Shown: positions 1 through 34,917, counted from the stretch's first letter. The stretch: DNA of 61,916 bases from a virus (IMGVR_UViG_3300043639_000021:1-61916); one strand, 5' to 3'. Notes: generated by a model not told the origin, from the sequence alone. Numbers and translations: made by a program.

Positions 1-795
1 GATCAGGTTCATCGGATCGGTGAACAGCCCGCTGGTCCCCAGCATCAGGGCAACCGGGGTCACCTTGCTGCCGTAGACGTAGACCGGGAGCAGCCCCTGC
101 ACCTGTGCGTCACCGAGTGCGGTCTGCCGTGCGCCGTACTGGTCACGGATCTCCGTCTCGTTGTCCACGGACACGAAGTGCGACATGGCACTGCGGTTCC
201 GCAGGTAGCGGGTGGGCATGGTCTTGAGCGCCTGCTTCACCGCCGCCTTGTCGAAGGCTCCGCCGACGTTCACCACGTTCGCGGTGGACATCTTCAGGTA
301 GCCGTCCTGCAACGCGAGATAGGGATCACCGATGTTCGTGGTGTCACCCTGAATCGCCAGTTCCTCCAAGTCGAGGGCGGCGCGTTCCGCGATCAGGTCC
401 ACGATGGTCTGGTGCAACCCACCCGCGCCGGTCTGGAGCGGCACGTTGACGTTGCCCTTCTCGATGTTGTCTTCCAGCACGTCGTAGGGGATGTTGACTT
501 CCGCGATGACTTCCTTCGTCTCCAACTGCACCTGACCGAGATCAGGCTTGGCCCGCAGTTCCGGCGGCAGGGCGATGGCGCTGACGGCAGGATGGAGGAT
601 GCGCGATCCGAAGCCGATCTTGTTGATCTTCATCTGCGGTGCGCCCATCGCCACGGTACGCACCGACGCCAAGAGCGTGGGCTGGTCAATGAGGGTCCGG
701 ATGAAGCGGTCGGTCTGCTCGGGATTCAGCTTGCCTGCGATCTCCAGATCACTCAGCGCCAGATCCGCTTTCTGGATGATGGCCTCGTTCGTCAT
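1..795 (-). CDS. Major capsid protein (PBSX XkdG / P2-like, HK97 fold); 3' end runs off the window
   Basis: Not in the ORF track (no stop in window). Manual translation from ATG at 795: MTNEAIIQKADLALSDLEIAGKLNPEQTDRFIRTLIDQPTLL...EVNIPYDVLEDNIE...ERAALDLEELAIQGD, typical of this capsid family. Follows protease and scaffold, with a GGAG RBS. Confidence 0.9.
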   Translation of the reverse strand, partial: MTNEAIIQKADLALSDLEIAGKLNPEQTDRFIRTLIDQPTLLASVRTVAMGAPQMKINKIGFGSRILHPAVSAIALPPELRAKPDLGQVQLETKEVIAEVNIPYDVLEDNIEKGNVNVPLQTGAGGLHQTIVDLIAERAALDLEELAIQGDTTNIGDPYLALQDGYLKMSTANVVNVGGAFDKAAVKQALKTMPTRYLRNRSAMSHFVSVDNETEIRDQYGARQTALGDAQVQGLLPVYVYGSKVTPVALMLGTSGLFTDPMNLI

Positions 796-847
796 TGGGT
801 GTCTCCTGCCTTGAATTCAAAAACAACGGTTCAGAGCGATCTGGGTG

Positions 848-1975
848 TTACCGATTGCGCCGACGCAAGTACGCCGTGTCGAACGTGCCCGTGCGGGGAT
901 CGTCGTCCTTCTGGACCCGCATCCGCGTGCTGCCCGCCGGTCGATCTTCGGCCAGTGGCGGAGCCGTCACGGTGGCGTTCAGCTTCTGGGCCACAGTGTC
1001 AGCCTTCTGGACCACGTCGTCAAGGACTTTCTTCTGCATAACTTGTTCAGCAGCAACGGTTTCGAGCTTGGTGCTCAACCCCGTCAACTGCGTCGTGACG
1101 CCCTTGAGTGCGTCGAGGATCTCCGACTTGTACGCCTCATCCGGCGGCGGCTTCTGGTCGTCTTCCTCGTCCACGGGAGCCATCTCGGCGGGCGGATGGT
1201 TCTTGAGCCGCTTCGTCTTCTCGGCCTCCGTCTCGCCACTCTTGGTGGCACCGTTCTTCACCTTGTCGGAGTGGAGCTTCGTCTCCTTGTACGGGCTGTC
1301 GGCCTTCGCCACCGGCTCCTCGTCATCCTCGTCGTCCTTCTTCTCGTCGTCGCAGTCGCACTTCGCCACGATCTCCTTGATCGCCTCGTCCAGCTTGAAG
1401 CAATTGGTCGGCAGCACCGCCAACTGGTTCAGGTACTCGGCGTAGCTGACCAACGCGGCCTCGGCTTCGGCCTGCGGCGTCTCAGACTTGGTGACCGTGT
1501 GCTGCAACCGGTTGTGAAGAAGGGTGGTGGCCGTCTGAAGATCAGGCAGGAACCCATGCTCCTCGACCATTTCCCCGATCCACCCGGAGGGAATCTGGAG
1601 CCCACCCACGGTGACCAGCATCTGATCGCTCAGACGGACCACGTGCGTGTCACCCTTCGCCGGGTTCTGGACGAACACCAGCGTCTCGTCGTCCGACTTC
1701 TGCACCGTATTGGTGATGAAGCCGTGGTCGGTGATCGCCTGCTGCACTTGAGTGCCAGCCGCCTCGTTCTTCTGGGCAAAGACCACGAGTGCCGACACGT
1801 AGGGCTTCGCTGAGGCGTCCGACTTGAACACCGTGGTCAAATCAATGCCCATCATGCTCTCCTTATCACGTTTCAAGACCCGAAAAGGAATACGAGTCGC
1901 TGCGCGGTCCACCAGCGAGATGAAGCGGACATCCGCATCCCGCAACTGCTTCAAGTTGGTTCGGATCGTTGCCAT
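848..1975 (-). CDS. Capsid scaffold / head assembly protein with XkdF-like N-terminal motif
   Basis: N-terminal LRDADVRFISLVDRAATRIPFRVLK resembles the XkdF N-terminal segment. Acidic, coiled-coil C-terminal half with many V/I-x-K-[ASD] sites. Lies between protease and capsid genes. Confidence 0.7.
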   Translation of the reverse strand: MATIRTNLKQLRDADVRFISLVDRAATRIPFRVLKRDKESMMGIDLTTVFKSDASAKPYVSALVVFAQKNEAAGTQVQQAITDHGFITNTVQKSDDETLVFVQNPAKGDTHVVRLSDQMLVTVGGLQIPSGWIGEMVEEHGFLPDLQTATTLLHNRLQHTVTKSETPQAEAEAALVSYAEYLNQLAVLPTNCFKLDEAIKEIVAKCDCDDEKKDDEDDEEPVAKADSPYKETKLHSDKVKNGATKSGETEAEKTKRLKNHPPAEMAPVDEEDDQKPPPDEAYKSEILDALKGVTTQLTGLSTKLETVAAEQVMQKKVLDDVVQKADTVAQKLNATVTAPPLAEDRPAGSTRMRVQKDDDPRTGTFDTAYLRRRNR

Positions 1976-1980
1976 GAACG

Positions 1981-2568
1981 TTACCCCAAAATACGGACAG
2001 TATCAACCGAAGAAAAGCGGTGCCGGTGGCCTGCTGCATCTTGGGTGTGGGTGCCCGCAACAATCGAATGAGAATGACCGTTCACAACATCCGTCATGCC
2101 GCCTTTGAACTGGCCTCGCTCGTCATACGACACAAAGAACGTGTGCCAATGACCATCGTCCGACTTGCTGGTCAAGCCGGTGACCACCGGAGGGATCTCG
2201 ACATCAACCTCCATGTCGTGTCGCGTGACCAGTGCCTCCATGCTGAAGCCATTGATCTCCCCCTTCTTGATCGCGCCCCACAACACGGGATCAGGCACAT
2301 GGACTCCAACCACCCATGAACCGGGAAGAAAACGGGTGTCAGCAGCATCAGCAACAAAGGACTCCACGACGCTGGCACCGGTAATCAGCTTATTCCCGTG
2401 CATCACGTCGATCTGACCCATCTTGCCAGAACGCAGGAACGCATGGGCCATCTTCTGAATCTCGACGGCGGTCATGTACTCGCCCTGCGCGTCAGGACGG
2501 TTGGGGGCATAGACTTCCCCCAGAATCACCTGAAGCTCCTCGCTTTTGACGACCAGTGATTTTGTCAT
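1981..2568 (-). CDS. XkdF-like prohead serine protease with His-rich C-terminal repeats
   Basis: GEVYAPNRPDAQGEYMTAVEIQKMAHAF...IDVMH...VVESF...GSWVVG...WGAIKKGEINGFSME matches the XkdF-type peptidase pattern. The tail has three GHxHx[FI] repeats. Confidence 0.88.
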   Translation of the reverse strand: MTKSLVVKSEELQVILGEVYAPNRPDAQGEYMTAVEIQKMAHAFLRSGKMGQIDVMHGNKLITGASVVESFVADAADTRFLPGSWVVGVHVPDPVLWGAIKKGEINGFSMEALVTRHDMEVDVEIPPVVTGLTSKSDDGHWHTFFVSYDERGQFKGGMTDVVNGHSHSIVAGTHTQDAAGHRHRFSSVDTVRILG

Positions 2569-5066
2569 GCCAGCACCATCTCACGCTTCTTCACCCCAGC
2601 GGCGGGGAGGCCGAAGGCTTGCGTCCACTTCTTGGCGACGTGGTACACCTCGGACATCGTCAAATCCACCGTCACGACATCCATCTCCAAATCGTTGTCG
2701 AGATCGCCGTCCTCGGCATCCCGGCCCACGGCTGCGGCCCACGTGTGATGCCCGTCAATGACGTAGCCATCACTCGACACCGTGATTCGGGCCTTCTTTG
2801 GATCGCGTCCGGGGTGAATCATCATCCCGGCGACTTTCGCGCCTTCCATCTCCGCCTGACTGGCCTTGAGCTTCCGGGCAAGGATCTTGTCGTAGGAGTT
2901 GGTCTTGACGCCTGCCTGATCGAGATGCTTCAGGAACGCATCCGTCGCGTCCACTTCCCCATCGACCACCGGGAGCTTGGAGGCTTCGCTTCCGGGCACA
3001 GGATTCTTGGACTTGAACTGCGGCATCTCGATGCGAGGAATACCGTGGGGGAACTCCGCCGTCCGAATCTTCTCGGTGCAAAACAGACTGACGCCCTTGA
3101 CCGTCATGTTGCACACGTCAAAATTCGGAGCGTCCTTCCCCTGTTTCTTAGCCGCCAACGCAAACTCGCCCAATAACTTCAACACCGTATGCACGTCTTT
3201 GGTGTCTTGAATCTCGACGTTCTGCCCACGGAGTAACCGGACAGCGGCTTCCTCCGCCGTCTTACAGGAATGCACGGGCTGGCTGTTCCGCTTCTTCAAC
3301 TCCTTCTGCATTTCCTGTTGGGCAGGCGTTCCCGTTCCATGCGGCGTTCCCGTCGTCTCGGCGTCCGTGAACTGCCCGCCCTTCGGGCCGTCCTTCACCC
3401 GTGGATGCTGGCTCTCGTTCCACTTCAGCACTGACAGGTAATCCGGACTCTCTTCAGATTCATCAGACTCGGGTTCCACGGTCTGGCCGTACCACGGGTT
3501 GTCGAGATCCAACTGCAAGAGTCCATCGTATAGCTGAAAGACCTCGGCCTGCATCTCAGCCTTCCGCTGACGAGCGTCCTTCCAGTGTGGATCATCCGCT
3601 TTGGTAGCCGCCGTCATCTCCTGCTCTAACTCCGCCAGATGTTCGAAGTAGGCGTAGGTGTTTCGCACCGCAATGGCAGCATCTCCTACCGCTGCGGTGA
3701 TACGTCCGTTGCTCCCCGACTGAGTTTTCTTCCGCTTCTTGGCTCCGGGTTGCTTTTTCTCCGATTCCCCGGAGGACCGGATATCCCCGACCGCGAACAC
3801 TCCCGGCATCGAGGTTTCCAAATCACGATCTACCTCAAGAAACCCACCCTTCGGGCCAGTCTCGGATCGGCCCGTGCGGGCAATGCTGTCAGGGAGCCAT
3901 TCCGTGTTGGGGAGCCCACCCAGAAACAGGCCGACTTCATCAGCGGGAATCCGATCACCGCTTTTGAGCAGGAGAGAGGTGGCTTCGCCCTTGTCATTCG
4001 TCTCAAGGGTACCAATCTCATCGTGAATGACACGAATCTTGGGATTGCTCCGAATCTGACTACGCTGATAGTCGCTCATCCCCTTTTCCAAGGGAGAACG
4101 TGACAATACCGTGACTCGCTTGGCACCGGCATCAGCAGCCGCGAGTGCAGCCTGCGCGGCTCCGTTCGAACCGCCGACCACCACCACTTCCCCATCGACG
4201 CCTTCCGCCGCCAAGGTCTTCCCGTTGAGCACGTGAACGTCTTGAGAGTCCTCTCCGGGGAACCCTGCCCGACGTGGTCGGAGCCCTCCCGCCAAGATGA
4301 CCGTCCTCGACTGGATCACCTGTCCGTTGGACAGCGTCAAGGTCTTGATTTCCGTCTCGGGATCGTAGGTGATGTTGGATACCCGTACACCCAACAGCGT
4401 GTCAGCACGGCTCCGTTTCACCCCCGCGAACATCCCGTTGGCCATCTGTTCGCCGGACACACCTGCGGGGTACCCCGCTTGGGGATCGTTCTCAATCCGG
4501 GCAGAGAACTTGGCCTGTCCCCCCACCTCCGTACTGGCATCGATCAACAGCGTGTCATACCCTTCAACTCCGCCATGGATGGCCGCATTCATGCCACCCG
4601 GCCCTGCCCCGATCACCACGATGTCTCGGAGTCCACCGGGCTTGCCAATCCCCTCCAAGGCTACATTGCCGGGATCGACGTCCATCGAGTAGATCTCTTT
4701 GGTGATGGCAATCTGCTCGGTGACCAGTTCCTTCGCTCGGGGATGATCCGGCCTGTCCTTGTAGGACAGTAGCTCGTTGTTGAGAGTGGCCCAACGTTCT
4801 TTGATCTGCTCAAATCGCTTGGTCTGGGTGGCCTCAACGTCTTGGCTTCCGCCGACACCCACCAATTTCGGCTGCACAGGCGTGTCGCCACCCGCACCAC
4901 CAGCCTTCGCGAATTCCCCGCCATGCCCACCGGGGGAGCCGGTGGGTTGGCGCACGTAATCCCGCTTCAGCATGTGGGTCAGGGGAGGCAGGACTCGCCG
5001 CTCGGTGGGAAGCGGACGCTCCTGCTTCACCGCTGTGCGACTGGTAAAACCACTCGTGAAGGGCAT
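2565..5066 (-). CDS. Tagged polyprotein: TrxB-like FAD/NAD(P) oxidoreductase (no CxxC) + ParB/sulfiredoxin-like domain
   Basis: VVIGAGPGG, VVVVGGSNGA and ETSMPGVFAVGD motifs; second domain LKASQAEM...VSSDGYVIDGHHTWAAA. Tags KRDYVRQPTGSPGGHGGEF and LKWNESQHPRVKDGPKGGQF precede the two domains. Confidence 0.8.
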   Translation of the reverse strand: MPFTSGFTSRTAVKQERPLPTERRVLPPLTHMLKRDYVRQPTGSPGGHGGEFAKAGGAGGDTPVQPKLVGVGGSQDVEATQTKRFEQIKERWATLNNELLSYKDRPDHPRAKELVTEQIAITKEIYSMDVDPGNVALEGIGKPGGLRDIVVIGAGPGGMNAAIHGGVEGYDTLLIDASTEVGGQAKFSARIENDPQAGYPAGVSGEQMANGMFAGVKRSRADTLLGVRVSNITYDPETEIKTLTLSNGQVIQSRTVILAGGLRPRRAGFPGEDSQDVHVLNGKTLAAEGVDGEVVVVGGSNGAAQAALAAADAGAKRVTVLSRSPLEKGMSDYQRSQIRSNPKIRVIHDEIGTLETNDKGEATSLLLKSGDRIPADEVGLFLGGLPNTEWLPDSIARTGRSETGPKGGFLEVDRDLETSMPGVFAVGDIRSSGESEKKQPGAKKRKKTQSGSNGRITAAVGDAAIAVRNTYAYFEHLAELEQEMTAATKADDPHWKDARQRKAEMQAEVFQLYDGLLQLDLDNPWYGQTVEPESDESEESPDYLSVLKWNESQHPRVKDGPKGGQFTDAETTGTPHGTGTPAQQEMQKELKKRNSQPVHSCKTAEEAAVRLLRGQNVEIQDTKDVHTVLKLLGEFALAAKKQGKDAPNFDVCNMTVKGVSLFCTEKIRTAEFPHGIPRIEMPQFKSKNPVPGSEASKLPVVDGEVDATDAFLKHLDQAGVKTNSYDKILARKLKASQAEMEGAKVAGMMIHPGRDPKKARITVSSDGYVIDGHHTWAAAVGRDAEDGDLDNDLEMDVVTVDLTMSEVYHVAKKWTQAFGLPAAGVKKREMVLA

Positions 5067-5717
5067 CTACGTGGATTTGGCCCGCTGCTGTTTTGCAAAC
5101 GACTCTTTGCTGATCCCGAAGGCACCCGTCGCCAGAAGATCATCCATGGACCCACGGTCCAGCATGTCACTCAGCAGACTGCGCCCTCCGCCTTTGGACT
5201 CTGTGGGCTTCGCCTCTGCGGCCTTGCGCTTCTGGTACGCCTCGTGTGCCTGTCGCGTTTCTTCGCGTTGCTTTCGATACGTCTCTTCATACGCCTGCTG
5301 AAGGGCCGCTTCCTTTTGCTTCTTCACGTCCGCTGGAGATTTCGGCGTATCAACGCCAGCCACGAACAGTCCACCGGGAGTCGCCACCGATTGCAGACTC
5401 TCCACCCACTTCCCGAATTTATCGCGCATCTGCTTCGGATCAAACTTCAACACCTCAGCGTACGACCGCTTCTCCGCCTGCTGCCGTTCCTTCCGTCGTT
5501 TGAAGCGACGGGTATCACGGGAGGAGTGTGGTCCCGGTGTCTGGTGTTCAGGGTTGACGGACTCGTTGTAGCCGATGCTGAAGGTGCAAACGGCATGCGG
5601 CTCGTAGCCGCCGCCCTTGGCCTTCACCTTCTCCACACACCTATGCCATTTAGCACTGTGGATGTGGCCCTCACCCTTGAGAGCCGCACGCGTCGTGAAT
5701 CCCGTAGACAGGGGCAT
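5067..5717 (-). CDS. Tagged basic/coiled-coil protein with small two-Cys N-terminal module
   Basis: KWHRCVEKVKAKGGGYEPHAVCT module; tag YAEVLKFDPKQMRDKFGKW. Leader MPLSTGFTTRAALK resembles MPFTSGFTSRTAVK of the next gene. Confidence 0.65.
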   Translation of the reverse strand: MPLSTGFTTRAALKGEGHIHSAKWHRCVEKVKAKGGGYEPHAVCTFSIGYNESVNPEHQTPGPHSSRDTRRFKRRKERQQAEKRSYAEVLKFDPKQMRDKFGKWVESLQSVATPGGLFVAGVDTPKSPADVKKQKEAALQQAYEETYRKQREETRQAHEAYQKRKAAEAKPTESKGGGRSLLSDMLDRGSMDDLLATGAFGISKESFAKQQRAKST

Positions 5718-5726
5718 CGTCAGCCC

Positions 5727-6305
5727 TTAGCTGAAGGACGACCGGCGGGTGGGATCCTTTGAGCCAAACATCTCACGGGCGTGCCGCCGCCGCTGCTCGT
5801 TGCTGAACTGAAACCCCGGCCCTGCGGGGTTCTCGAAAGGCAAATTCGTGGCCTTTGCTGGTGGACTCCCGGCCTTATAAGGCAACTTCTCCACTCGGGA
5901 CTCGTCCATACCTCTCCTGAAGGGCAGATTCTCGTAAGAATCCACCGTTCGTGCCTTGGCCTTGCGCTCCAATTCAATGAGCGTAGTATTGGTTTCGACT
6001 TCCTTCGTGCGGGCCTTGGCCTTGCGTTCCAACTCAATGAGCGTGGGATTCGTCTCCGTCACCCCGTAGTCGAACCGGCTCAGAAACCCCTTGACCATAC
6101 CTTTGAGCTTCTGGCCAAACGCGCCCGTCGTGGGGGCTCCCATGGTGCCACCCGGACGCCCTCCACCGCTGGGAGCAAATCGGCCATCGGACCCGTGGTT
6201 GGGGTTGTACTTCAGCACCCGTTCATAAGGAAGGGTAGCAACAGGCTTCTCGTCCGGGTGTTCCAGCGCGTGGCGTGACATCACGGCTGAGGTATGAATG
6301 GGCAT
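5727..6305 (-). CDS. Tagged basic protein with internal duplication
   Basis: Likely ATG at 6305 after GGAG. Tag YERVLKYNPNHGSDGRF; two copies of ETNxTLIELERKAKART. Confidence 0.6.
   Translation of the reverse strand: MPIHTSAVMSRHALEHPDEKPVATLPYERVLKYNPNHGSDGRFAPSGGGRPGGTMGAPTTGAFGQKLKGMVKGFLSRFDYGVTETNPTLIELERKAKARTKEVETNTTLIELERKAKARTVDSYENLPFRRGMDESRVEKLPYKAGSPPAKATNLPFENPAGPGFQFSNEQRRRHAREMFGSKDPTRRSSFS
5945..6060. repeat. Imperfect 60-bp tandem duplication within a CDS
   Basis: gccttggccttgcg[c/t]tccaa[t/c]tcaatgagcgt occurs twice, 60 bp apart. Confidence 0.8.
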
Positions 6306-6368
6306 GAGGCTCCTGCACTTGATTGCAACCGGTGTGCGTAGTGTACAGGAGGGGGGAGGATGCAACAA

Positions 6369-6530
6369 CTATTTTCTGGGCACCCACAGGGTGGGGACCA
6401 GTAGCTCCTTGGCCCGCTCCGGATGCACGTTCATCGTGGTCACCAGATGCCGGTAGGCTCGTGGTTTCGCCACTGGTTTCGCCATCAACGGTGCAAGGGA
6501 CCGAGTGATCGGCTTGGTCGTAATCGTCAT
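6369..6530 (-). CDS. Small basic hypothetical protein (53 aa)
   Basis: Manual translation MTITTKPITRSLAPLMAKPVAKPRAYRHLV...; start overlaps the upstream stop (ATGA). Below the ORF track cutoff. Confidence 0.45.
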   Translation of the reverse strand: MTITTKPITRSLAPLMAKPVAKPRAYRHLVTTMNVHPERAKELLVPTLWVPRK

Positions 6531-9310: not shown

Positions 9311-10278
9311 GCCAGTAGCTCCTGAATCTTCCGCTTCGCGGTATGCTCACGGCTGGCGTCAAACACCCACGCCTGCCGGGGCTTCCCCAGCATGATTAGT
9401 TCCCGCTCGTGCAGCGCCCCTCGCCCGGTCAGTGCCGTACTCAGGATCTCCGACACCGGCACACGGGTAGTAATCACAGACGGCTCGGGGGTGTCATATG
9501 TATCTTCGCCGGGGATCTGGTCAAACGACTGATTGGACGTGAATTGAAACGCCACGTCCTCATCCGATGTCCACGACGACGCAGGCTGCATCGTCACCGT
9601 GCCCACCCCTAAGCCTAGCTCCCCACGGCCCTGTAGCCCGCCGTGTCCACGCAGCACGGACACGTGCGTAATCCCTTGCTTCGCGAACCACGCTTGCGTA
9701 TTTTCATACTCGGCTCGGACAAACGCCATTGCTCGTGATCGCTCGGGCTCTTTAAGCGTGGGATGGAATCTCAGGTGATCCGTAGCGGCATCCAACCCAA
9801 ATTCCAATCGAACCGCCTCCTGCATCTTGACGGCATCCACACTGTTCGCCGCCGTATCCGCCCACAGATCAATCTTCTCTTGAATCCACCCGGCTATCTT
9901 CGGCCCCGTCATACCAGCAAAGGCCGGGTGTTTCAACAGGCGCTCCGTCAACTCCATTTGAACCCGACGTTTCACGACGCCCCGTACCTCAGATGCCCGC
10001 AACGGATCGAACCCCGGAAAGCTGTCTCGTATGGCTCCCTCCACCTGTTTAGGAGCCACCAGCCGCGTGTGATCCTGAAACGCCCGCTGCATTTGATCGA
10101 CTTCAGCCTGCCGGGGATGGTAGGACGACACCCAGCGCCCCCCACCAGAAGTGCCCTCAGGATTCCGTGGCTGATTGGGATCGAACTTCTGTACTGGCCC
10201 GTAGAGGGGGACCAGAAATTCCCGGTCGTCAATGAGCAGTTCAGGAGTCATGGGGTTCAAAGGTATAGGTGAAGCCAC
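9307..10278 (-). CDS. Tagged ADP-ribosyltransferase (R-S-E type)
   Basis: Tag KFDPNQPRNPEGTSGGGRW; VLRG...SSWTS...ERELIML catalytic pattern. Confidence 0.72.
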   Translation of the reverse strand: MASPIPLNPMTPELLIDDREFLVPLYGPVQKFDPNQPRNPEGTSGGGRWVSSYHPRQAEVDQMQRAFQDHTRLVAPKQVEGAIRDSFPGFDPLRASEVRGVVKRRVQMELTERLLKHPAFAGMTGPKIAGWIQEKIDLWADTAANSVDAVKMQEAVRLEFGLDAATDHLRFHPTLKEPERSRAMAFVRAEYENTQAWFAKQGITHVSVLRGHGGLQGRGELGLGVGTVTMQPASSWTSDEDVAFQFTSNQSFDQIPGEDTYDTPEPSVITTRVPVSEILSTALTGRGALHERELIMLGKPRQAWVFDASREHTAKRKIQELLA

Positions 10279-10864: not shown

Positions 10865-10866
10865 GG

Positions 10867-11097: not shown

Positions 11098-11114
11098 CAC
11101 ACACCTCCAGTCAC

Positions 11115-11143
11115 AGTGTATCACTAGGATGACAGTTTGTCAA
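11115..11143 (-). promoter_or_regulatory. Sigma70-type promoter inside the head operon
   Basis: TTGACA-17 bp-TACACT on the minus strand, just after the kinase stop codon. Confidence 0.75.
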
Positions 11144-12871: not shown

Positions 12872-12873
12872 CC

Positions 12874-15039
12874 TTAGCTCACTTTCGACCAGTCTACGGT
12901 GCTCATCCAGTGGGGCTTGCCACGGTCCTCGGCTTGGAGATCGATCACCAGCGTCTGGGACTCGGCCTTCTTCACCGGTTGTACGATGGGCACCTCATCG
13001 AAGGATGGGGCTCGGTTGCGCCACGCATCCCACAACCACTTGTCTTTGGTACCCACAATGACCACCTCGTGCTCGGAAGTATTATTCGCCCCGTAGATCG
13101 GCAGTGAAAGCACCGACGTAGGAGGCGTCTCGATGCGAAGGACGACTCGGATGGGATCCGGAGGCAGATTGCCGACACCACCCCACTCGTTCGCCACATC
13201 ACGAGTGCCGGTCGTAGACGCGGCTCCAGACCGTTGCAGTTGAATATCAGGCAGTTTGATAGACAAACCCACAGAAGTATTCAAATACATCGCGATTCGC
13301 CGCTGAATCGCCACCTCATTACTCTCGTAGGGAGTCTGACCGACGTCCGTGATAGTGGTGGCCTCGACGCGCTTCTTCGGAACCACAAAATGCTGGCCGT
13401 TGAAATCAAAGGCCACATGAGGGAACGGAGAATACGTACTCGTCACCTCTTTAATATTCGTGGCTGCGGGTTCGGGTTGTCCCGTTTTATCCACGATCAA
13501 ATTCGTCGTGCCCCTCACCACGTCACCGGGCATCTGCAACCCCCGATACACGGGAACTGTCGTCTCCCCGGCCCGCTGTAACACCAGTTGGTTCACTTCC
13601 CACTGGGCACGGACGTAGGCTTGCAACGTGGCGATACCGCCATAATCCTCGGCATCCGCCGTCGCGTCCTCTACCTCTTCCTTCGTCAGCCGATGGTGAC
13701 CTCCCAGTTCCAGTGCCGCCGCCAACTGCAACGACAGAGACAACCCTTCACTAGACGAAGCAATCCACTGTCCCCAAACATCGCTAATCAATTTCTGCGA
13801 CGTGGTCGGAAGAGATGCTTGTTTTTGCCAGTACGTCGCCCACTTTTCTCCGAATTCCTTAGCCAGTTCTTCTGTCTCCGCCCCGCCTACCACACTCCCC
13901 GTATCATCCTTCACCACGAACTTGCCAGCTTTAACCAGCAACGGATGATTCGCTTCAACCGTATACGCAGGTCGTTCGACAGCATGTTCCCCCGCAAACC
14001 CCCGCTCTTTCCGCAACTCATCCGTCCGTAGTTCGGTCAGACGCTTGGCAATCGTCGCTGTGCGGGCGTAGTCATCATCCTCGTGGGTGCCTTCTTTGAT
14101 GCCTGATACCCAGTGTGTCGGCTCATGACGGCCTGCGGTCCCATAGGGATTGTCCACCCCGGAGAATTCTCCGCCTGCGATCATCTCGGGAATGACGGCG
14201 GCTCGTTGCTCGGGGGACATCCGATCCCACTGCTTCTGAACTTCCGCCGTGACCAACTCCCCCCGCTCCTCCAAATACTTGTCGGTGTTCTGAACCCGCT
14301 CGATTTCATCGTCCAGCACCCGCTTGTATTCGTGGGACCACCACCCACTCACATGGGTTTTTTCGAGGGGTGTCAACTCCGTGCCATCCGTGTGTCGCAG
14401 TGCATTGGTATCCAACACCGGCACCCCGGTATCGTCCACGCGCTTCGGGTCAGGCACGCTTAACGTCTTGAAGTCCAGTGGTTTGCCCTGCGACACGCTC
14501 TTATCGAGCGCATACCCGTCCATGGGCTTGTCACCGATTCGACCTTCTACCCAGACCTTGGTCTTCTCGGCCAGTTCGGGAGCGTGGTTCTCGATCAAAT
14601 CCCACCGGACATCCACCACCATGTCAGCGTCGATGGCCTGCACGTCCACGTTGTCGTACTGAGACTCTGCGTAGTAGGCGGCAACCTTTTGCTTGGTGCT
14701 CTCAGGAAGATCCCCCCACTCCCCTTTCACCTCCGACATATCCATCGTGTCGATGGCTTCCGGTAGGAGCCTCTCGACGGCAGCGATCCCGGCCTTGGCT
14801 TGCACCGCTAACAGAGGATCGGACGTAGGGACGCCTGAACGACCGGACTCCGTGAACCGCCCGCCCTCTCGCGTGCCTTCGGGGTTGCGGGGGTGCTCAG
14901 ACTCGTCAAAGGCGTCCTTGGCCTGCTTCGGTGGGGGATGACGTTTCTCCAGCAACACCCGGATCTTGTGGACAAGCTCCTGCCCACGGATTAAGGCGTC
15001 CTCTCGGAGTATTGTTTTCTCGATGGTGTCGTGGCTCAT
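12874..15039 (-). CDS. Tagged large protein with C-terminal R-S-E ADP-ribosyltransferase domain
   Basis: Tag KDAFDESEHPRNPEGTREGGRF; VYRG...STT...EHEVVIVG. Similar to 9307..10278 (YVRAQWEVNQ vs FVRAEYENTQ). Confidence 0.68.
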   Translation of the reverse strand: MSHDTIEKTILREDALIRGQELVHKIRVLLEKRHPPPKQAKDAFDESEHPRNPEGTREGGRFTESGRSGVPTSDPLLAVQAKAGIAAVERLLPEAIDTMDMSEVKGEWGDLPESTKQKVAAYYAESQYDNVDVQAIDADMVVDVRWDLIENHAPELAEKTKVWVEGRIGDKPMDGYALDKSVSQGKPLDFKTLSVPDPKRVDDTGVPVLDTNALRHTDGTELTPLEKTHVSGWWSHEYKRVLDDEIERVQNTDKYLEERGELVTAEVQKQWDRMSPEQRAAVIPEMIAGGEFSGVDNPYGTAGRHEPTHWVSGIKEGTHEDDDYARTATIAKRLTELRTDELRKERGFAGEHAVERPAYTVEANHPLLVKAGKFVVKDDTGSVVGGAETEELAKEFGEKWATYWQKQASLPTTSQKLISDVWGQWIASSSEGLSLSLQLAAALELGGHHRLTKEEVEDATADAEDYGGIATLQAYVRAQWEVNQLVLQRAGETTVPVYRGLQMPGDVVRGTTNLIVDKTGQPEPAATNIKEVTSTYSPFPHVAFDFNGQHFVVPKKRVEATTITDVGQTPYESNEVAIQRRIAMYLNTSVGLSIKLPDIQLQRSGAASTTGTRDVANEWGGVGNLPPDPIRVVLRIETPPTSVLSLPIYGANNTSEHEVVIVGTKDKWLWDAWRNRAPSFDEVPIVQPVKKAESQTLVIDLQAEDRGKPHWMSTVDWSKVS

Positions 15040-17177
15040 AGGATAGACACACCTTCATGGGACTCTTTGAACCGGTCGAGAGCGTCTTCATCCCACATGC
15101 CCGATGACTGGATGGCCTTCAACTGATCGTAGAGGAATTGCCGCTTCTCAGGACCGTAGTTTTCGTCAATATACAGCACCCTGTCCCGCATTCCCCTACG
15201 TGCCAGTTTATCAGATAATCGCTGTGCGGCCTCGTAATCTCCTTCGACCACGAACCCTTTGACCGCTGACTTGGGCACCTGTGGCACTTTTACTTCGAAT
15301 AGTTGCTCACGGGACCGGTGCAACAGAGCTTCAGGGGATCCCGCTCGTGCCGCCGCCACGGCATAGTAGTCATCCCCCTTCACGATCATCGACCGGTACT
15401 TCTCTACCCGCCGGGGGTTGTACGTCTCCCGCATACCGGTATCATCAAACTCGGCCCCTCCCGGCACCACAACAATATCCTTCTCCGTGGCCCATCCCCC
15501 GTCCTGAAGAACTTCGTTGTCGATGATGACCGCCACGTTGCCGTAGTCTTGATGCTTCTCCCCATGGGTCATGAACACAAACCGATCCAACCCCAGCTTC
15601 TTATCAGCAGGATTGGTGGTCCCTGTGATCACCTTTTCAATGTCTTGCAATTCCTGCACGTAGCCTAAGAGCGCCTCCGCGTCACTGCGATCCAATCCCA
15701 GTCCCTCAATATCATCAGCAGTCCAGAAGGGAATGTTGCCCCAGTCCGCATCTTCACCCACGATGTTATTGATGCTGTCCTTCAGATCCTCAATGTCCTC
15801 AGTCAAATCTTTGATTTCGCCTTCCATATCTGCGTGCGAAAGCAAACCCTTCTCCACGGCTCCAAGTGCTCCGGCCACGGTCGTTCCGTGAACCAAAGGC
15901 AGGGCACGTAACTCTTGTTCTGCTGCATGCTCCTTGGCTAGATCCGGCTCTGTTCCGGACAAGAACGTCCGCACCCGCCGAAACTCAGTAATCTGCGCTT
16001 CGGCATTGGCTTTCGAATCCACGCCCTGCAAAACCTTTGCTGACGATGCAAATTGCCCGCCTTCACTAGTGCCTTTCGGCTCTCGGACGTACTCTCGTGC
16101 CACCTTCTTGCGCTTCCGGGGCACATCGGCATAGACCCGCACTTCGTGCAGGAACTTGTCGGAGCCCGTCGTCACGAGCGCATCAGCGGGAATGTCCTCA
16201 GCGGCGGTTTCCAGAATCTGCACGTGTTCGGGATTCAACTTGGCAAGGAGCTTCTGGTCCCCAAACAGGATGGGGTTCTTCAGACTCTCCACGGGATGGC
16301 CTGCGGCCTGCTCCGCTTCTCGCTCTCGCAACTGGAGATAGGCTTTGTGGGCATCCGACACGTGACTGCGGTAAATCTGTTCCCGCTCCTCCGGAGGTGG
16401 GGGTGGACCCACCCACCCACGCTTGTCCTCGGGGAGATCCTTGTCCCACACGAACGTGCGCTCCAGCGATTGATCACTCCAGTTGTGCAGGGCGAAATCC
16501 ACCGCCCCTTGGAGCGATCCCTCTGGTAACCCAGCCGCCTGCTCGTCCTCCCGTGCCCACCGCTCAATCGTGTCCTTCCGGGCTTCGCCTCGGGCTATCT
16601 GTATGGCCCGGACCAACTCTCGCTGAATGACCGTGGCATCCACAGGGCTGGACGTGAACGACACCCCTAGTGCCTGCCCACCACCCAGCCCACCGCTCTC
16701 CTTCAAGCCCAGTAGGACGCCAGAGGACTCCACCGCCGGAGCATTGGTGGTGACGTGGTAGAGCGTCGATGGAATCTGCTCACGGGGGATGGGCTCACCG
16801 GTCAGCAGATGCCCTCCGGGCTTGCCCGTCTCCTTGTCGATCCACGCCCACCGCTGTTCGTTCCCCCAACTGGAATACTGACCTACATCAGAGGGACGGT
16901 TGAAGATGCGGGGCTGGCTGGCCTCGATGAACCGGCCATCATCGCCTCGTGGGTGTGCTGCCGCATCGAACTTCCGGGTGATGCCCCCGATACCGGGAGC
17001 TTTTGCACTTGAGTGCGCGGTAAAGAAGGCGGTGCTGCCGTCGTCAAAGAGCACACGGGCAGCGGTGGCCTTCTCAGCGGGCACAGGGTGCCAGTGGGCA
17101 TCCAGATACACCACGGTGCCGGTCTTGCTGCCGATGGTGATCAGAGTAGGGGTCACGCTCGATACCACTTGTGCCAC
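15036..17177 (-). CDS. Tagged polyprotein: small N-terminal domain + two His-type ART-like domains
   Basis: Tags KFDAAAHPRGDDGRF and REYVREPKGTSEGGQF. Domain 1 LYHVT...GVSFTS...HEVRVY; domain 2 LVHGTT...GLLSH...FVFMT...FEVKV (DarT-like pattern). Confidence 0.62.
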   Translation of the reverse strand: MAQVVSSVTPTLITIGSKTGTVVYLDAHWHPVPAEKATAARVLFDDGSTAFFTAHSSAKAPGIGGITRKFDAAAHPRGDDGRFIEASQPRIFNRPSDVGQYSSWGNEQRWAWIDKETGKPGGHLLTGEPIPREQIPSTLYHVTTNAPAVESSGVLLGLKESGGLGGGQALGVSFTSSPVDATVIQRELVRAIQIARGEARKDTIERWAREDEQAAGLPEGSLQGAVDFALHNWSDQSLERTFVWDKDLPEDKRGWVGPPPPPEEREQIYRSHVSDAHKAYLQLREREAEQAAGHPVESLKNPILFGDQKLLAKLNPEHVQILETAAEDIPADALVTTGSDKFLHEVRVYADVPRKRKKVAREYVREPKGTSEGGQFASSAKVLQGVDSKANAEAQITEFRRVRTFLSGTEPDLAKEHAAEQELRALPLVHGTTVAGALGAVEKGLLSHADMEGEIKDLTEDIEDLKDSINNIVGEDADWGNIPFWTADDIEGLGLDRSDAEALLGYVQELQDIEKVITGTTNPADKKLGLDRFVFMTHGEKHQDYGNVAVIIDNEVLQDGGWATEKDIVVVPGGAEFDDTGMRETYNPRRVEKYRSMIVKGDDYYAVAAARAGSPEALLHRSREQLFEVKVPQVPKSAVKGFVVEGDYEAAQRLSDKLARRGMRDRVLYIDENYGPEKRQFLYDQLKAIQSSGMWDEDALDRFKESHEGVSIL

Positions 17178-18820
17178 TCGTACATCATTTCAGTCAGCAT
17201 CACCCACTGAGAGTCCGGATCCGGCTTTTCTTTCTCATCCCACGACTGAGGAGTAGTCATAAACCGGGTGATCTCCGCTATCGTCTCAGTGATGGCATGA
17301 TCGTACGGGTGCCAGCGGCTATCCTTCTTCTGTTCGGCAATGGCCTCCGGAGTCCAATAGGACTCCGCGTACGTGCTGTGCCCATCCTCTTGGATCATTT
17401 GCTTGGTAATACCCAGCGATCCCCTGAAGTACTCGCCGCCCGCAAGCCTCGCCACCACCGTAGAGGCTGGATAGTCTCGGGCAAACTCCTCCGCATACTC
17501 GGGTTTCAACTGTCGCCCAGTACGCCCACTCGGTCCAGTCTGCATCGAAAATCGTTCCAGAAACCACTCCGAGTACTGATCCGTGGGAGTGAACGCCTTC
17601 TTCTTATAGGCTTCTTCCTCCCGCTCGGAGGCTTGTTTCAATGCGTGGAAGATGGCGTGGGAAATCTCATGGGACACTACCCCTTGGATGTCAATCCTGT
17701 CTCCATAGGAAAGAGTAGGATCCCCGTAGGTAGACCCAATGTTTGCGGCATTCAATTGAATACGCCCCGTGGTGGGATCAAAATGCCCAGCTTCCGTAAA
17801 CTGCTTCGCGCCAACCGAAAATCCCTTGGCCTCCTCATGCACTATGTCAATGCGCGACGGATCAAACCCCATTTTCTGGGCCATCTCGTTCGCCAAAACG
17901 CGAACGGCCTCCGCCCGGATCTTGGCCCGCTCCGGGCTTACGGCCTCCAGCGTGATGTCCAGCATCGCGTCCGATCCGGCTGAACTTTCCGTGAACTTCC
18001 CGGCCCTGTCACGGGGGTGCTCGGACTCGTCCCACTTCGTGACCGTCACAAACTTGGCGGGAATAGGCTCACGACTCCACACCGAATCCGGGCCGCTGTT
18101 CCGCTTGAGTCCTTCGTACAGCAATCGCGGGAGGCGCACCGTTACCACAGCGGGTTGGGCGTGCATCTCAGAATACGATTTCGCTGACGCCATCCGTTTG
18201 GCCAACCAGATATAGTCCCGGTGTCCCTCTGGATCTCCGCCCATCGTCTGCTTGGCGACGGCGCGGATTCTGAACCCTTCCTTTAGAATCTTGTTGGCCC
18301 GTCTCCGGCTGGTGCCGTGGTATAGCTCCACAAACTCCCCGACGTGGGTGACGCCTTCGGCATCCACCCATCGACCGTGCTCATCCCGTGGTTGGGCAGG
18401 ATCGAACTTCAGCGCCTTGGTATTGGCCTCATCCGTGGCAATCAAGTGCAGGGCATCTTCTTGGATCTTGGCGGTGGCGGTGAACTCCAAGTACTGGATG
18501 ATGTTGTTGGTGACTTGCTTCAGGAAGGTGTCGAAGGTGCCGACGCCGACGAAGCTGGGCTTCTTCTTGGCTACTGTTTGGGCACCGAAGGTGGCGAACG
18601 ACAGCAGCATGTAGGTGATCCACTCCCTGTTGCTCGTACCGACCTCGGTCATGTCAAGGAAGGTCACCAGACGGCGGGCTTCATCCCACTTGTGGTCAAG
18701 ACACGCTTGGGTGATGCGGGCGTACAGGGGGGCAGACTGGATGCGCCACGCCCGTTGCAGGCGACGGACAAACGCCCGCTCTAGCAGGAGATACGTGCGA
18801 AGGTCAACGGTCTTGGCCAC
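17153..18820 (-). CDS. Polyprotein: helical N-terminal region (putative MuF N-half) + ART-like domain + zincin metallopeptidase
   Basis: Tags LKFDPAQPRDEHGRW and KWDESEHPRDRAGKF; LYHGTS...ILKEGF...YIWLA; HEISH...ETIAE zincin motif. Confidence 0.7.
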   Translation of the reverse strand: MAKTVDLRTYLLLERAFVRRLQRAWRIQSAPLYARITQACLDHKWDEARRLVTFLDMTEVGTSNREWITYMLLSFATFGAQTVAKKKPSFVGVGTFDTFLKQVTNNIIQYLEFTATAKIQEDALHLIATDEANTKALKFDPAQPRDEHGRWVDAEGVTHVGEFVELYHGTSRRRANKILKEGFRIRAVAKQTMGGDPEGHRDYIWLAKRMASAKSYSEMHAQPAVVTVRLPRLLYEGLKRNSGPDSVWSREPIPAKFVTVTKWDESEHPRDRAGKFTESSAGSDAMLDITLEAVSPERAKIRAEAVRVLANEMAQKMGFDPSRIDIVHEEAKGFSVGAKQFTEAGHFDPTTGRIQLNAANIGSTYGDPTLSYGDRIDIQGVVSHEISHAIFHALKQASEREEEAYKKKAFTPTDQYSEWFLERFSMQTGPSGRTGRQLKPEYAEEFARDYPASTVVARLAGGEYFRGSLGITKQMIQEDGHSTYAESYWTPEAIAEQKKDSRWHPYDHAITETIAEITRFMTTPQSWDEKEKPDPDSQWVMLTEMMYEWHKWYRA

Positions 18821-19064
18821 TCTGTTTCCCGGCCTCCTCCACGATTTGCGTCACAGCTTCCTTCTTGACCGCTTTCGCGTCCCGCTCCCCACGTTCCTTG
18901 GCGTGAGCCGTCATCCAATTGTTAATGTCGGTGCTGAAATTCGACCACCACGACAAGAACACCAGATAGCGCACCGACTCCTGCCACGAGGTGAGCGTGG
19001 GATAGAGCAACAACACCCACACCACCACCGTCAGCGAATAGAAGTACGAGAGTTTGAACCTCAC
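18804..19064 (-). CDS. Small membrane protein
   Basis: Two hydrophobic N-terminal segments and a charged C-terminal tail; overlaps both neighbours. Confidence 0.55.
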   Translation of the reverse strand: MRFKLSYFYSLTVVVWVLLLYPTLTSWQESVRYLVFLSWWSNFSTDINNWMTAHAKERGERDAKAVKKEAVTQIVEEAGKQSGQDR

Positions 19065-19471
19065 TCCTGTTCCCGTGCGGCTCGGAAGGCTTTCTGCTTC
19101 GCTCGGCCTTGGGCCATGCGATAGTCCAGATCCCGCTGCTTCTCCGCCACGATGCCCCCACGGTCCAGCCGTGCCTCGCGCATCCTCCCGGCCTTGGCCT
19201 TGTGCTCCTTGTTCTTCTCGACCACCCGTGCCCGTGCCGCTACATAACGATCCAGTTGCGTGACCGCATAATCACGAAACTGCGCCGGATCCACCCCTGC
19301 ACGCTCCGCGTGAATCGCGGCTTCCGCCACCACATGCTGGCGGGCCTTCAACGGCGTGTGTCCCGCCTCCAACCCCTCAATCACCCCGGCGTCGAACACC
19401 TCGGTGAATCGGCCATTCGGTCCTCGGGGATGCGCGGCCTCATCGAACTTCAGGATGTCGGCATACGTCAT
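19061..19471 (-). CDS. Tagged small basic helical protein
   Basis: Starts MTYADILKFDEAAHPRGPNGRF; coupled to the portal stop. Confidence 0.65.
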   Translation of the reverse strand: MTYADILKFDEAAHPRGPNGRFTEVFDAGVIEGLEAGHTPLKARQHVVAEAAIHAERAGVDPAQFRDYAVTQLDRYVAARARVVEKNKEHKAKAGRMREARLDRGGIVAEKQRDLDYRMAQGRAKQKAFRAAREQE

Positions 19472-21345
19472 CGCAGCACCCCCACCACCGCTGACAGGTC
19501 CGCATCATCAGAGCCGTAGACCAGCATCGCCAGCAAGCTGTTGAACGCTCGGGCATCATCGGGATCCAACGTCTCAATCTCGGCGTTGATCTCGGTGGCC
19601 CGCTCGGGTGTCAACTCCTGCTTGATGGCCAGTTGTGGCAGGAGCCCTTGGTAGACGGCGTAATCCTGCACCAGTGACAGGAGATCGCCTGCGGCCTTCC
19701 GGTACTTGGCCTTGGCCTTCTCCCGTGCCATCGCCTTGGCTTCTTCCTTCGCGCCGATCTCATCTGGGGTTTCGACCTTCGGCTCGGGCTGTTTCTGCGG
19801 AGCCGTCATCGGGGGATGCACCGTGGACGCCGGAAGCTCACCAGACGGGATCTCGTCCATCGTAGGCGTGTTCGGCAGCGGCGTCTCGCCGGGGGCAACG
19901 TTGGGAGCCGGAGCTTCCGACATCTCCAGATTCATCTGGCCCAGCGTGTTCATCTCTTGGAGGAAGCTCTCACGGGTGGCGACAGGCATCGCCAGTTCCA
20001 ACCCCTTCAACTGCGTGGCCACATCCTTCAGGGTGATGGGCTTGGACTTGTAGATGAGGGTCTTGAGCTTCATCTCTTTGAGAATGGTCTTGTTGATCAT
20101 CTCATCGAATTCGGTGCGCTCGGGCAGGAACACCTGTGCCTCGGCCACCATATAGCTCGTTTGTGCGGTGGCGAAGTTGTAGTCAGCGGCGTAGCCAAGG
20201 AAGAGGGGCGGCAGACGGAAGCCGATCCGGACGTGCTCCTTCGTCTGCTCATCGTAGTTGGTGAACATGGCGTCTTGACTCTGAGCAGAGCCGAAGCGTT
20301 CCACCTTCACGTCCACCTTACCCGCCGCATCCAGTGACCCGCTGGAGGACTGCACTTCTACGACCACCGCCCGGTTCTTGTTCTTGTTCAGACCGCTTAG
20401 GTACATCCGCAACTGGTCGGACGTGTCCTTGATCAGCGTGCCTCCCTGAATGAACACGATGGCGGGCGGGAGGCCACCGGCATCGAGGAATTGCAGGTTC
20501 TGTTCTTCCGCCGCACGGGAACCGATCACCGATGGCAACTGGTTGATCCACCGGGGCAGGTAATAGGGCGTCGTAATATCAGGGTTGATGCCCAGCATCA
20601 GCAACTCGGAGCCGCGCTTCTCCGCCGGAACTTTCTCGGTGTCCGTCTCCCACTTCCCCGTCTCCCGATGAATCTCACGGGTGGTCCCAAACTCCCGGTA
20701 GTAGACTTGGGTTTTCAGGCCCACCGACTGCGCGAACCGTCGCTCCCGATCCCACAGGACCAGTTCGACTTCTTTGCCGTTCCGGGTGATCTTCTTCTTG
20801 ACCTGAATGGGGGCATCGAGCTTCACCAGCCGGATGTGGGAGGTTTCCACACTTCGAAGTCCGACGATATCGCCTCCGATATTCCGGAGCACCTCCATAA
20901 AGCCGTAGCCCACGGACTCCATCTGCCGCCGCAGCTTGCGACGAATGCCGGTCATCGACGTATTGGGGTAGGGCTCATCAAAGAACCCGGTGGCGATCTT
21001 CTCTTCCTCCTTGTCGATATCCTTGCCTTCCTCAACGGGCACCAACTCGTAGCCCGTGCCGTCGATGTTGACTTCCATCGCCTCGATGCACTGGTTCAGG
21101 ACGTTGTTGGTTTGGACAAGGTTCAGGAGGACGTTCGGTTCGAAGGGCGGCATCAGGTAGAGGTTATCCTGCTGCCCCGCCGTGTAATAGAGGTTGGCAA
21201 ACTCGTCCTCTAGTTCGACGGTCGTCTGCGCCATCACCAGCCACGTCTCGTTCTTGATCACCTTCTGGATGAAGTGGATCTTGGACTCGGGACTCTTGAC
21301 TGGCTTTGAGGGAACGACTCCCTCTGTGAGCTTCAGCATTGCCAA
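19468..21345 (-). CDS. Portal protein (PBSX XkdE-like)
   Basis: CIEAMEVNIDGTGY, GYGFMEVLRN, YYLPRW, FLDAGGLPPAIVFIQGG and FRLPPLFLGYAADYNFATA are portal-typical segments; first gene of the head operon. Confidence 0.9.
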   Translation of the reverse strand: MAMLKLTEGVVPSKPVKSPESKIHFIQKVIKNETWLVMAQTTVELEDEFANLYYTAGQQDNLYLMPPFEPNVLLNLVQTNNVLNQCIEAMEVNIDGTGYELVPVEEGKDIDKEEEKIATGFFDEPYPNTSMTGIRRKLRRQMESVGYGFMEVLRNIGGDIVGLRSVETSHIRLVKLDAPIQVKKKITRNGKEVELVLWDRERRFAQSVGLKTQVYYREFGTTREIHRETGKWETDTEKVPAEKRGSELLMLGINPDITTPYYLPRWINQLPSVIGSRAAEEQNLQFLDAGGLPPAIVFIQGGTLIKDTSDQLRMYLSGLNKNKNRAVVVEVQSSSGSLDAAGKVDVKVERFGSAQSQDAMFTNYDEQTKEHVRIGFRLPPLFLGYAADYNFATAQTSYMVAEAQVFLPERTEFDEMINKTILKEMKLKTLIYKSKPITLKDVATQLKGLELAMPVATRESFLQEMNTLGQMNLEMSEAPAPNVAPGETPLPNTPTMDEIPSGELPASTVHPPMTAPQKQPEPKVETPDEIGAKEEAKAMAREKAKAKYRKAAGDLLSLVQDYAVYQGLLPQLAIKQELTPERATEINAEIETLDPDDARAFNSLLAMLVYGSDDADLSAVVGVLR

Positions 21346-34879: not shown

Positions 34880-34917
34880 ATGTGCTTCCCACTCCATTGG
34901 TCAGACTTGACTTCATC

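Follow-up and report, generated by a model that had tools for sequence, protein, structure and literature searches.

In HK97-type head maturation (Peptidase_S78) and with the herpesvirus assemblin, a Ser/His protease that assembles along with the procapsid breaks down the scaffold and shortens the capsid protein, and in encapsulins a short terminal peptide on a flexible linker sends unrelated enzymes into an HK97-fold shell. That a head protease recognises the same motif in structural and in internal proteins is well established for T4- and phiKZ-like phages. As described in the available sections of PMC9026906, the T4 protease gp21 cuts at L/I-x-E, a motif common to the scaffold or core, the capsid and the internal injected proteins (IPI-III, and Alt, with a capsid targeting sequence, CTS); short N-terminal leaders, ~10 residues long, are taken off, and the scaffold ends up in many fragments. 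The gp175/gp245 protease of phiKZ, 201phi2-1 and SPN3US acts at A/S/G-x-E sites, and many packaged proteins, the portal and the protease itself are cut, with several cuts falling within propeptides (PMC10052503, available sections). Packaging and injection have been predicted for the polyvalent proteins of phages and conjugative elements and for MuF-fused effectors or toxins (PMC5512222, available sections). Here we describe a stretch of viral DNA (IMGVR_UViG_3300043639_000021, "the window": a whole IMG/VR virus record, linear, of 61,916 bases, with a CheckV completeness of 54% and genes on the minus strand throughout) in which structural proteins and an array of tagged cargo proteins share a lysine-containing motif, the candidate cleavage site of an XkdF-type protease.

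The window carries the head module of a siphovirus-like, uncultured phage that is kin to the Stenotrophomonas phages DLP5 and Summit and the Rhodobacter phage RcZahn. From high to low coordinates, it encodes the portal, the cargo array, the XkdF-type protease, a scaffold-position protein and the major capsid protein. The array (2565-19471) comprises 11 tagged open reading frames (ORFs) of 136 to 927 amino acids (aa), with 1 to 4 modules apiece, and one small ORF without a tag. A cargo module consists of a junction ending in [V/I/L/A]-x-K, a tag, a Gly/Ser/Thr-rich linker and an enzyme domain. The tag follows the pattern [FWY]-[DN]-x3-[HQ]-P-R-x(2-8)-G-[RKQ]-[FW] and is 11 to 19 residues long; degenerate forms also occur. 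We infer that the junctions form a Lys-specific code read by the XkdF-type prohead protease, which would separate the cargo modules and leave the tag at or near each new N-terminus. This is the best explanation for the observations below, and we assign it a probability of roughly 0.6.

The structural genes and their motifs are as follows, with a slash marking the predicted cut and h a hydrophobic residue.

1-795, minus strand: N-terminal 265 aa of the major capsid protein (phrog_1623, E 1.4e-75); the gene is cut by the window end
769-771, minus strand: codon of K9, which ends the 9-residue capsid leader at IIQK/AD; the same site is present in Summit (LIKK/AD) and RcZahn (LLQK/AD)
848-1975, minus strand: scaffold-position protein of 375 aa (phrog_27672), between the protease and capsid genes; h-x-K/x-[DE] sites by pattern at K35, 51, 69, 93, 163, 205, 224, 283, 324 and 356
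1981-2568, minus strand: XkdF-type prohead serine protease of 195 aa (PF14550, E 6.4e-22; phrog_15223, E 4.2e-66)
2545-2547, minus strand: codon of K8, which ends the 8-residue protease leader at LVVK/SE
19468-21345, minus strand: portal protein (phrog_12, E 2e-24), with KVIK/NE (K31, 21253-21255) and LAIK/QE (K575, 19621-19623)

An earlier note on this DNA had listed the capsid, protease and portal sites above, six scaffold sites (VLK/RD, VFK/SD, VQK/SD, VTK/SE, VAK/AD and VQK/AD) and two untagged borders (AQK/SE before 2H and VQK/KD before MuF), and we found all of them, the last two at K356 and K529 of the cargo polyprotein 6527-9310, together with further scaffold sites (VAK/CD, VQK/DD, AQK/NE and AYK/SE). 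To gauge chance occurrence, we shuffled the residues of each protein, 5000 times for scaffold and portal and 3000 times for cargo. The scaffold contains 10 copies of [VILFMA]xKx[DE] where 1.8 were expected and 8 copies of VxKx[DE] where 0.45 were expected, an excess of about 5 to 18 times; neither count was reached by any shuffle (0/5000 each).

The positions of these sites are also conserved. Among 2284 capsid homologues at E <= 1e-10, we examined the 120 listed (45 by regular expression, 75 by eye), and h-x-K-[ASTV]-D is present at residues 8-14 in 120/120, with a leader length of 7 to 14. The protease N-terminus reads [VI]-x-K/x-[DE] in 18/18 aligned proteases, and the lysine is retained at the N-terminal portal site in 8/9 aligned sequences and at the C-terminal site in 11/12. 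We also aligned six scaffolds, those of the window, three related contigs (L152, L173 and L175), Summit and RcZahn, and found about 7 sites conserved by column. The site after R-I-P-F-R-x-x-K is present in 6/6; equivalents of VQK/SD, VTK/SE and VVQK/AD occur in 5/6, in the same or the adjoining column; the YK/SE equivalent is found in 5/6 and the RVQK/DD equivalent in 4/6, with those of Summit and RcZahn shifted by a few columns. Leaders of 8-9 residues are alike in the small cargo protein, the capsid protein and the protease.

The same lysine recurs in the tagged cargo genes, which are organised as follows.

2565-5066, minus strand: cargo polyprotein of 833 aa (Pyr_redox_2, E 1.9e-33; phrog_2859), with leader, HMLK/RD and degenerate tag (4911-4958), FAD/NAD disulphide oxidoreductase, YLSVLK/tag (3369-3422) and C-terminal ParB-like module
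5067-5717, minus strand: cargo protein of 216 aa, with conserved 91-aa N-module, YAEVLK/tag (5406-5444) and C-terminal part, as delimited by ORF borders in relatives
5727-6368, minus strand: cargo protein with YERVLK/short tag (6177-6209); homologues have the same junction
6527-9310, minus strand: cargo polyprotein of 927 aa, with tag (9188-9229, K at -3), ParB/PFIN-like module, tag (8753-8794, K at -3), a further module, AQK/SE, 2H phosphoesterase (2_5_RNA_ligase2, E 9.9e-10), VQK/KD, MuF core (Phage_Mu_F score under its Pfam cut-off) and C-terminal domain
8243-8245, minus strand: codon of K356 in AQK/SE, before 2H in 6527-9310
7724-7726, minus strand: codon of K529 in VQK/KD, before MuF in 6527-9310
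9307-10278, minus strand: cargo protein of 323 aa with YGPVQK/tag (10132-10185; pattern scan)
10241-10864, minus strand: cargo protein of 207 aa with (A)IPVLK/tag (10772-10810) and, by visual reading, a JAB/RadC-type HxHPxG..SxxD motif; no Pfam match at E <= 0.01
11144-12871, minus strand: cargo protein of 575 aa with FPDVLK/tag (12737-12790) and PI3/PI4-kinase-like domain (PF00454, E 1.8e-10)
12874-15039, minus strand: cargo protein of 721 aa with QAK/DA followed by a tag (14854-14910); relatives keep [VI]AK with a spacer of 2 to 4 residues to the tag
15036-17177, minus strand: cargo polyprotein of 713 aa with ITRK/tag (16929-16970) and degenerate tag (16050-16091; pattern scan)
17153-18820, minus strand: cargo polyprotein of 555 aa (phrog_5470, E 2e-4), with MuF-N-like domain (1-138), ALK/tag (18368-18406), ART/Tpt1-like module, VTK/tag (17993-18034) and HExxH zincin-like domain
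19061-19471, minus strand: small cargo protein of 136 aa with 8-residue leader MTYADILK/ followed by a tag (19406-19447; pattern scan)

A pattern scan with coordinate check gave 17 tags in the window, 15 inside 770-21345 and 2 outside, and all matches to the strict pattern lie in minus-strand coding frames. Each of the eight hexapeptides that the earlier note had named directly precedes a tag, and seven of them lie in 770-21345 as it had stated, whereas the tag after YAALLK (36692-36730) falls outside. Lysine is at position -1, as the end of h-x-K, in 12 of the 17 tags, at -3 in four (HMLK-RD, EHK-LA, AVK-LA and QAK-DA) and at -5 in one degenerate tag.

We considered whether the lysine is intrinsic to the tag. 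IMG/VR was sampled with the pattern WDESxHPRD, leaving the upstream residues unconstrained; of 117 stretches, 80 loci were returned, with 75 distinct tags. Residue -1 varied among these (E 20, K 16, A 13, D 8). Counting all tags in the sample loci, taken with 10-kb flanks, and in 27 loci found via the protease, we observed K at -1 in 46/63 distinct tags of the window's lineage versus 5/105 elsewhere (Fisher test 2e-21, which is not a true probability since the rows are related), and K within -3 in 60/63 versus 38/105. An intrinsic lysine was therefore dropped as an explanation; judged from these sequences, the lysine before the tag is lineage-specific and does not belong to the tag itself. In those tags of the window's lineage that lack K at -1, a conserved [VI]-A-K or V-K is found 2 to 4 residues further upstream with a variable spacer (for example QAK-DA, VAK-DANA, VAK-KEAA and IAK-KD), and the joint after the MuF-N domain reads LK, QK, LKAA or LKVA in different relatives. 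The distance from lysine to tag thus varies from 0 to 4 residues while the lysine is kept.

Homologues of the 927-aa polyprotein (6527-9310) range from 597 to 1804 residues and provide a view of its untagged joints. The 2H module starts with h-Q-K/[SQ]-E-H-x-Y-G regardless of the upstream module, one relative reading VLK-GG, and the MuF module starts with h-x-K/[KA]-D-P-x-x-G-R-Y in all homologues, again regardless of what lies upstream. One relative, with 98% identity over the MuF part, has additional K/tag modules inserted exactly at K356 and K529, and in three relatives 2H and MuF together form a separate ORF that starts 13 residues before VQK/QE. In L008/L174 and L208, the 91-residue N-module of 5067-5717 forms an ORF of its own that ends 2 residues past ...ILK. 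The ParB-like module of 2565-5066 likewise stands alone in relatives, in an ORF that starts with M-F-T-E-V-L-K/tag, 7 residues before K/tag. Relatives' ORFs thus end 2 residues after ...ILK and start 7 to 13 residues before h-x-K, so that ORF starts, ORF ends and insertion points coincide with the predicted cuts; relatives also join the same modules into proteins of 1236 to 1804 aa. Given a motif that is shared by the structural proteins and fixed in them, a lysine that is lineage-specific and untagged joints that are module borders, cleavage by the prohead protease is the best reading.

We also noted that the contig L149/L195, 96-99% identical to the window in shared parts, carries extra K/tag modules and longer homologues (1236 versus 927 aa, 913 versus 713 and 839 versus 555), so that effector cassettes turn over between near-identical phages.

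The protease gene is located between the portal and cargo genes on one side and the scaffold and capsid genes on the other, and its product matches PF14550 (Peptidase_S78_2) with 78.3 bits against a gathering cut-off of 24. H57 and S109, the latter within G-[FY]-S, are invariant in 19/19 sequences, including those of a distant relative (L156), Summit and RcZahn, and by analogy could be the catalytic pair. A sequence search found no solved relative of the XkdF family.

We propose that the proteins would be built into the procapsid as precursors, after which the XkdF-type serine protease would be activated and cut after Lys in h-x-K/x-[D/E/N]. Leaders of 8-9 residues would be trimmed from the capsid protein, the protease itself and the small cargo proteins, the scaffold would be chopped at about 7 to 10 sites, and both portal ends would be trimmed. 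Cargo polyproteins would be split at their joints, with most mature effectors beginning at the tag or 2 to 4 residues before it. The tag is not lineage-specific and hence is a separate element from the lysine joint; most likely it is an address or handling signal for capsid cargo.

Several observations weigh against cleavage at the joints by the XkdF-type protease. The earlier note had the effectors start with the tag, which fits the 12/17 tags with K at -1, but the remaining 5/17 would not start exactly at the predicted new N-terminus. By count, the portal (5 sites, 2.2 expected, 326/5000 shuffles) is not significant alone. The 11 cargo proteins have 21 sites where 15.0 were expected (217/3000 shuffles), an excess that is mostly due to tag sites, and cargo sites away from tags are at chance level. 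We nevertheless credited the portal, capsid, protease, 2H and MuF sites because their positions are conserved in relatives. The AlphaFold2 (AF2) model of the protease is of low confidence (predicted local distance difference test score, pLDDT, 53.9) and too poor for a fold search. The proteome of DLP3 virions speaks for the reading in that the MuF-ParB protein was detected with 8 peptides while the scaffold and the protease, with only 2 each, were nearly absent; it was digested with trypsin, so that cuts after Lys would be invisible in it (PMC7326821, available sections).

The alternative that survives best, although we consider it unlikely, is that the pre-tag residues (Y-x-x-V-L-K and similar) are an uncut, lineage-specific extension of the tag that co-evolves with the tag's partner; the cargo would then remain whole in the virion, and the scaffold, capsid protein and protease would have true protease sites at K-x-[DE] that are unrelated to the tag junctions. 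In keeping with an extension, the residue after the predicted cut (P1') is a bulky aromatic (F/W/Y) at tags and small or polar at structural sites. Each multi-tag protein, moreover, has its own uniform pre-tag motif, with almost no lysine there in 50/97, and the motifs of other lineages often contain none (for example AAG, DAE, FSxD and LSLA). Within proteins, the excess identity at -4..-1 is +0.18 to +0.23, but it is equally large at variable positions inside or just after the tag (t1 +0.33, t5 +0.25, +1 +0.17; also G-x-F). Pre-tag uniformity alone is thus no proof of a protease site, and may reflect repeat homogenisation or a lineage-specific tag variant.

Polyproteins with or near an XkdF domain point both ways. 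P0269, whose XkdF domain is closely related (E 1e-53), reads VACGE ahead of its tags, with no lysine there, though its protease module itself is preceded by AAIK/AS. In the distant relative L156, residue -1 is E and the lysine lies nine residues upstream, with K/[SA][DE] there before 3/6 tags and K/AL before a fourth; its own N-terminus is in register with those cuts. The XkdF-fused polyprotein P0143 has [VM]-x-K/x-[DE]-W before 4/4 tags. Three observations speak against a tag extension: V-x-K is also found at the untagged 2H and MuF joints and at ORF ends with no tag behind them, the lysine persists at changing distances from the tag, and cargo, capsid protein and protease have similar leaders of 8 residues.

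Co-variation of pre-tag motif and protease was examined in 13 loci outside the lysine lineage, and Pfam and PHROGs detected the protease in few of them. A possible match in the capsid protein of L210, VASAG near the border of the N-terminal domain, to that contig's AAG pre-tag motif was discounted because such tripeptides occur 3 times in the protein, and the K-x-[DE] sites of L172 (S78 protease) were uninformative because L172 is Lys/Glu-rich. In L156, a 1351-aa six-tag polyprotein (9401-13456) is followed by a 782-aa protein (13489-15837) with a C-terminal XkdF protease.

It is quite improbable, in our estimation, that the joints are cut by another enzyme, either the HExxH zincin-like domain at the C-terminus of 17153-18820 or a host protease, with the XkdF-type protease processing scaffold, capsid protein and portal only. 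The HExxH domain is a candidate: the motif is invariant in 9/9 homologues, the fold weakly resembles selecase, a minimal metallopeptidase (probability 0.92, E 0.45, template modelling score 0.48 on target), and Iyer et al. predict autoproteolysis of polyvalent proteins by metallopeptidase (MPTase) domains (PMC5512222, available sections). However, the resemblance in fold falls short of significance, and for 17153-18820 the AF2 model, which places both tags in predicted coil, is of low confidence (pLDDT 55.5) and poor outside the HExxH domain. The joint motif, in addition, equals that of the scaffold sites and of the leaders of capsid protein and protease. Those sites and leaders are conserved in Summit and RcZahn, and no such peptidase gene is seen between portal and capsid gene in either phage. 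Chance recurrence of a short motif made of common residues (Lys, Val, Asp and Glu) could account for the portal and non-tag cargo counts, which are within the shuffle range, but is practically negligible given the scaffold counts, the conservation of site positions across relatives and the enrichment of K at -1 in the lineage.

The central claim of the earlier note, that the XkdF-like protease cuts after these lysines, is partly supported: it is favoured by comparative evidence (a shared motif, fixed positions, a lineage-specific lysine, variable spacing and borders at the joints) and weakened by the 5/17 tags set off from the predicted N-terminus, the lysine-free P0269 tags, the possible tag extension and the rival HExxH domain.

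The tag itself extends far beyond this lineage. A profile built from 70 tags matched 4109 cluster representatives (50% identity) at E <= 0.001 and 488 at 1e-10, with up to 20 matched stretches in one 7334-aa protein and a median spacing, in the best 150 matches, of 277 residues (interquartile range 200-426). When 30 multi-tag proteins were compared with Pfam, ART-PolyVal was found in 9, Phage_Mu_F in 4, the XkdF protease in 1 and nothing in 7. No Pfam model covering the tag gave a meaningful match for 60 tags, and a profile search of the PDB with the tag returned 0 chains at E <= 10. For cultured phages, a tblastn search of 50,697 phage records with 36 aa of tag sequence yielded just 3 matches, at E 4 to 9, and was uninformative. 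A name or description of the tag was not found in the available sections of PMC5512222, PMC9503650 and the phi24B preprint, the text of PMC5576092 does not contain the terms cleav, linker, conserved motif, proteoly or HPR, and a literature search, supplements aside, turned up no publication dealing with the tag or with where XkdF proteases cut.

More speculatively, and with considerable doubt, the HPR..G[KR]F peptide might be a near-universal label for tailed-phage capsid cargo that is always paired with a lineage-specific protease joint. Cut site, tag, linker and enzyme would then form a plug-in cassette for free effector swapping, the tag at the new N-terminus might guide retention or ejection, and the F/W/Y exposed in the window's lineage would be a bacterial N-degron that could time effector life in the host.

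Three multi-tag proteins (P0154, P0134 and P0160) have the pre-tag motif F-x-D-L-[YMI]-K, and one of them contains an FtsK/SpoIIIE domain; the tag may thus also occur outside capsid contexts. In Summit (L001), a 56-aa ORF at 3846-4016, between the protease and the scaffold, contains VQK and then a tag-like A-N-P-Y-R-G-A-G-G-K-F; this may be a minimal version of a tagged peptide, here from a cultured phage.

By protease, the closest cultured kin of the window's phage are the Stenotrophomonas phages Summit, DLP5 and DLP3 (55-56% identity), Vibrio VHS1-like phages, Rhizobium RHph_TM16 and Rhodobacter RcZahn. The gene order of the window, from portal to protease, scaffold and capsid gene, recurs in Summit and RcZahn. 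Between portal and protease, Summit has a single MuF-ParB gene, and RcZahn has no annotated gene in that slot. Residues 1-81 of the Summit protein resemble residues 51-131 of 17153-18820 (E 5e-6), and its core matches residues 527-665 of 6527-9310 (55% identity, E 8e-54). The MuF slot has thus been expanded by ~17 kb of cargo. The Summit-type MuF gene is apparently split in the window, with its N-terminal part in 17153-18820 and its core in 6527-9310, ~8 kb apart and with cargo genes between them. The cargo proteins are similar to one another only across 16 to 67 residues around the tags.

An N-terminal peptide of the form M-P-[FLI]-x-x-[GS]-[FA]-[TV]-[ST]-R..A-[VL]-K opens three neighbouring cargo ORFs (5025-5066, 5676-5717 and ~6264-6305, minus strand). 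It is kept in the relatives' homologues and may be a second type of leader. Two further features in or beyond the array are listed here.

10867-11124, minus strand: small ORF of 85 aa, the array's sole untagged member; a homologue is present in L187/L017
35011-36754, minus strand: two tagged ORFs beyond the head module, with SVVK/tag (35695-35733) and MMYAALLK/tag (36692-36730; pattern scan)

The 85-aa protein could be a partner or inhibitor of an adjoining enzyme. The two tagged ORFs at 35011-36754 matched no Pfam family and adjoin a pyruvate phosphate dikinase gene (32927-34897). A 523-aa ORF at 21469-23040, which has no family, ends at its C-terminus in Pro-rich repeats (PPTEPP.., KPPKPD..).

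If the code holds, the injected effectors of a large group of uncultured phages would be readable from sequence, each running from a joint-plus-tag to the next joint, and the mature units of polyvalent proteins would be predictable. It would also explain the whole-module differences in effectors between near-identical phages. An XkdF protease specific for Lys, together with its short, portable site and a tag, could furthermore serve as a tool to load foreign proteins into capsids, as the T4 CTS has.

The proposed processing works like that of T4 and phiKZ-type heads. As in T4, one short motif, h-x-K/x-[DEN], runs across the window's scaffold, capsid, protease and portal and 12 to 16 of the 17 tag junctions, although the cuts here are predicted from sequence. 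The residue before the cut (P1) is Lys in the window and Glu in T4, and the protease belongs to the Peptidase_S78_2 (XkdF) family rather than that of gp21. The T4 address peptide precedes the cut and is discarded, whereas the window's tag follows the predicted cut and would stay on the mature protein. What precedes the tag in the window is a leader of 8 residues or whole upstream modules, and the cargo is in part multi-module polyprotein. The phiKZ-type system differs in being Glu-specific and in removing long propeptides, and the available sections of PMC10052503 report no tag after the cut and no module cassettes.

The HK97 and assemblin systems have no cargo array and no tag. Encapsulin loading has no protease step, and its peptides are unrelated to the window's tag. 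In domain content, the array resembles the polyvalent proteins of Iyer et al. (2017) and the MuF-fused effectors of Jamet et al. (2017), with MuF, 2H, ART-like, zincin, RadC/JAB-like and ParB-like domains beside the portal; 2H, the MuF core, HExxH, the PI3/4-kinase-like domain and Pyr_redox_2 are the polyvalent-type domains of the window. Polyvalent proteins join 2 to 15 domains in one very long polypeptide; the window's modules are spread over 11 ORFs, and relatives fuse the same ones into longer proteins. For polyvalent proteins, processing has been proposed to occur by in-built MPTase or assemblin-like domains, and the available sections of PMC5512222 do not mention the HPR..G[KR]F tag or a junction code based on Lys. 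Relative to these systems, the new elements are the predicted Lys specificity, the protease family, the polyprotein cassettes and an undescribed tag that would stay on the protein after the cut.

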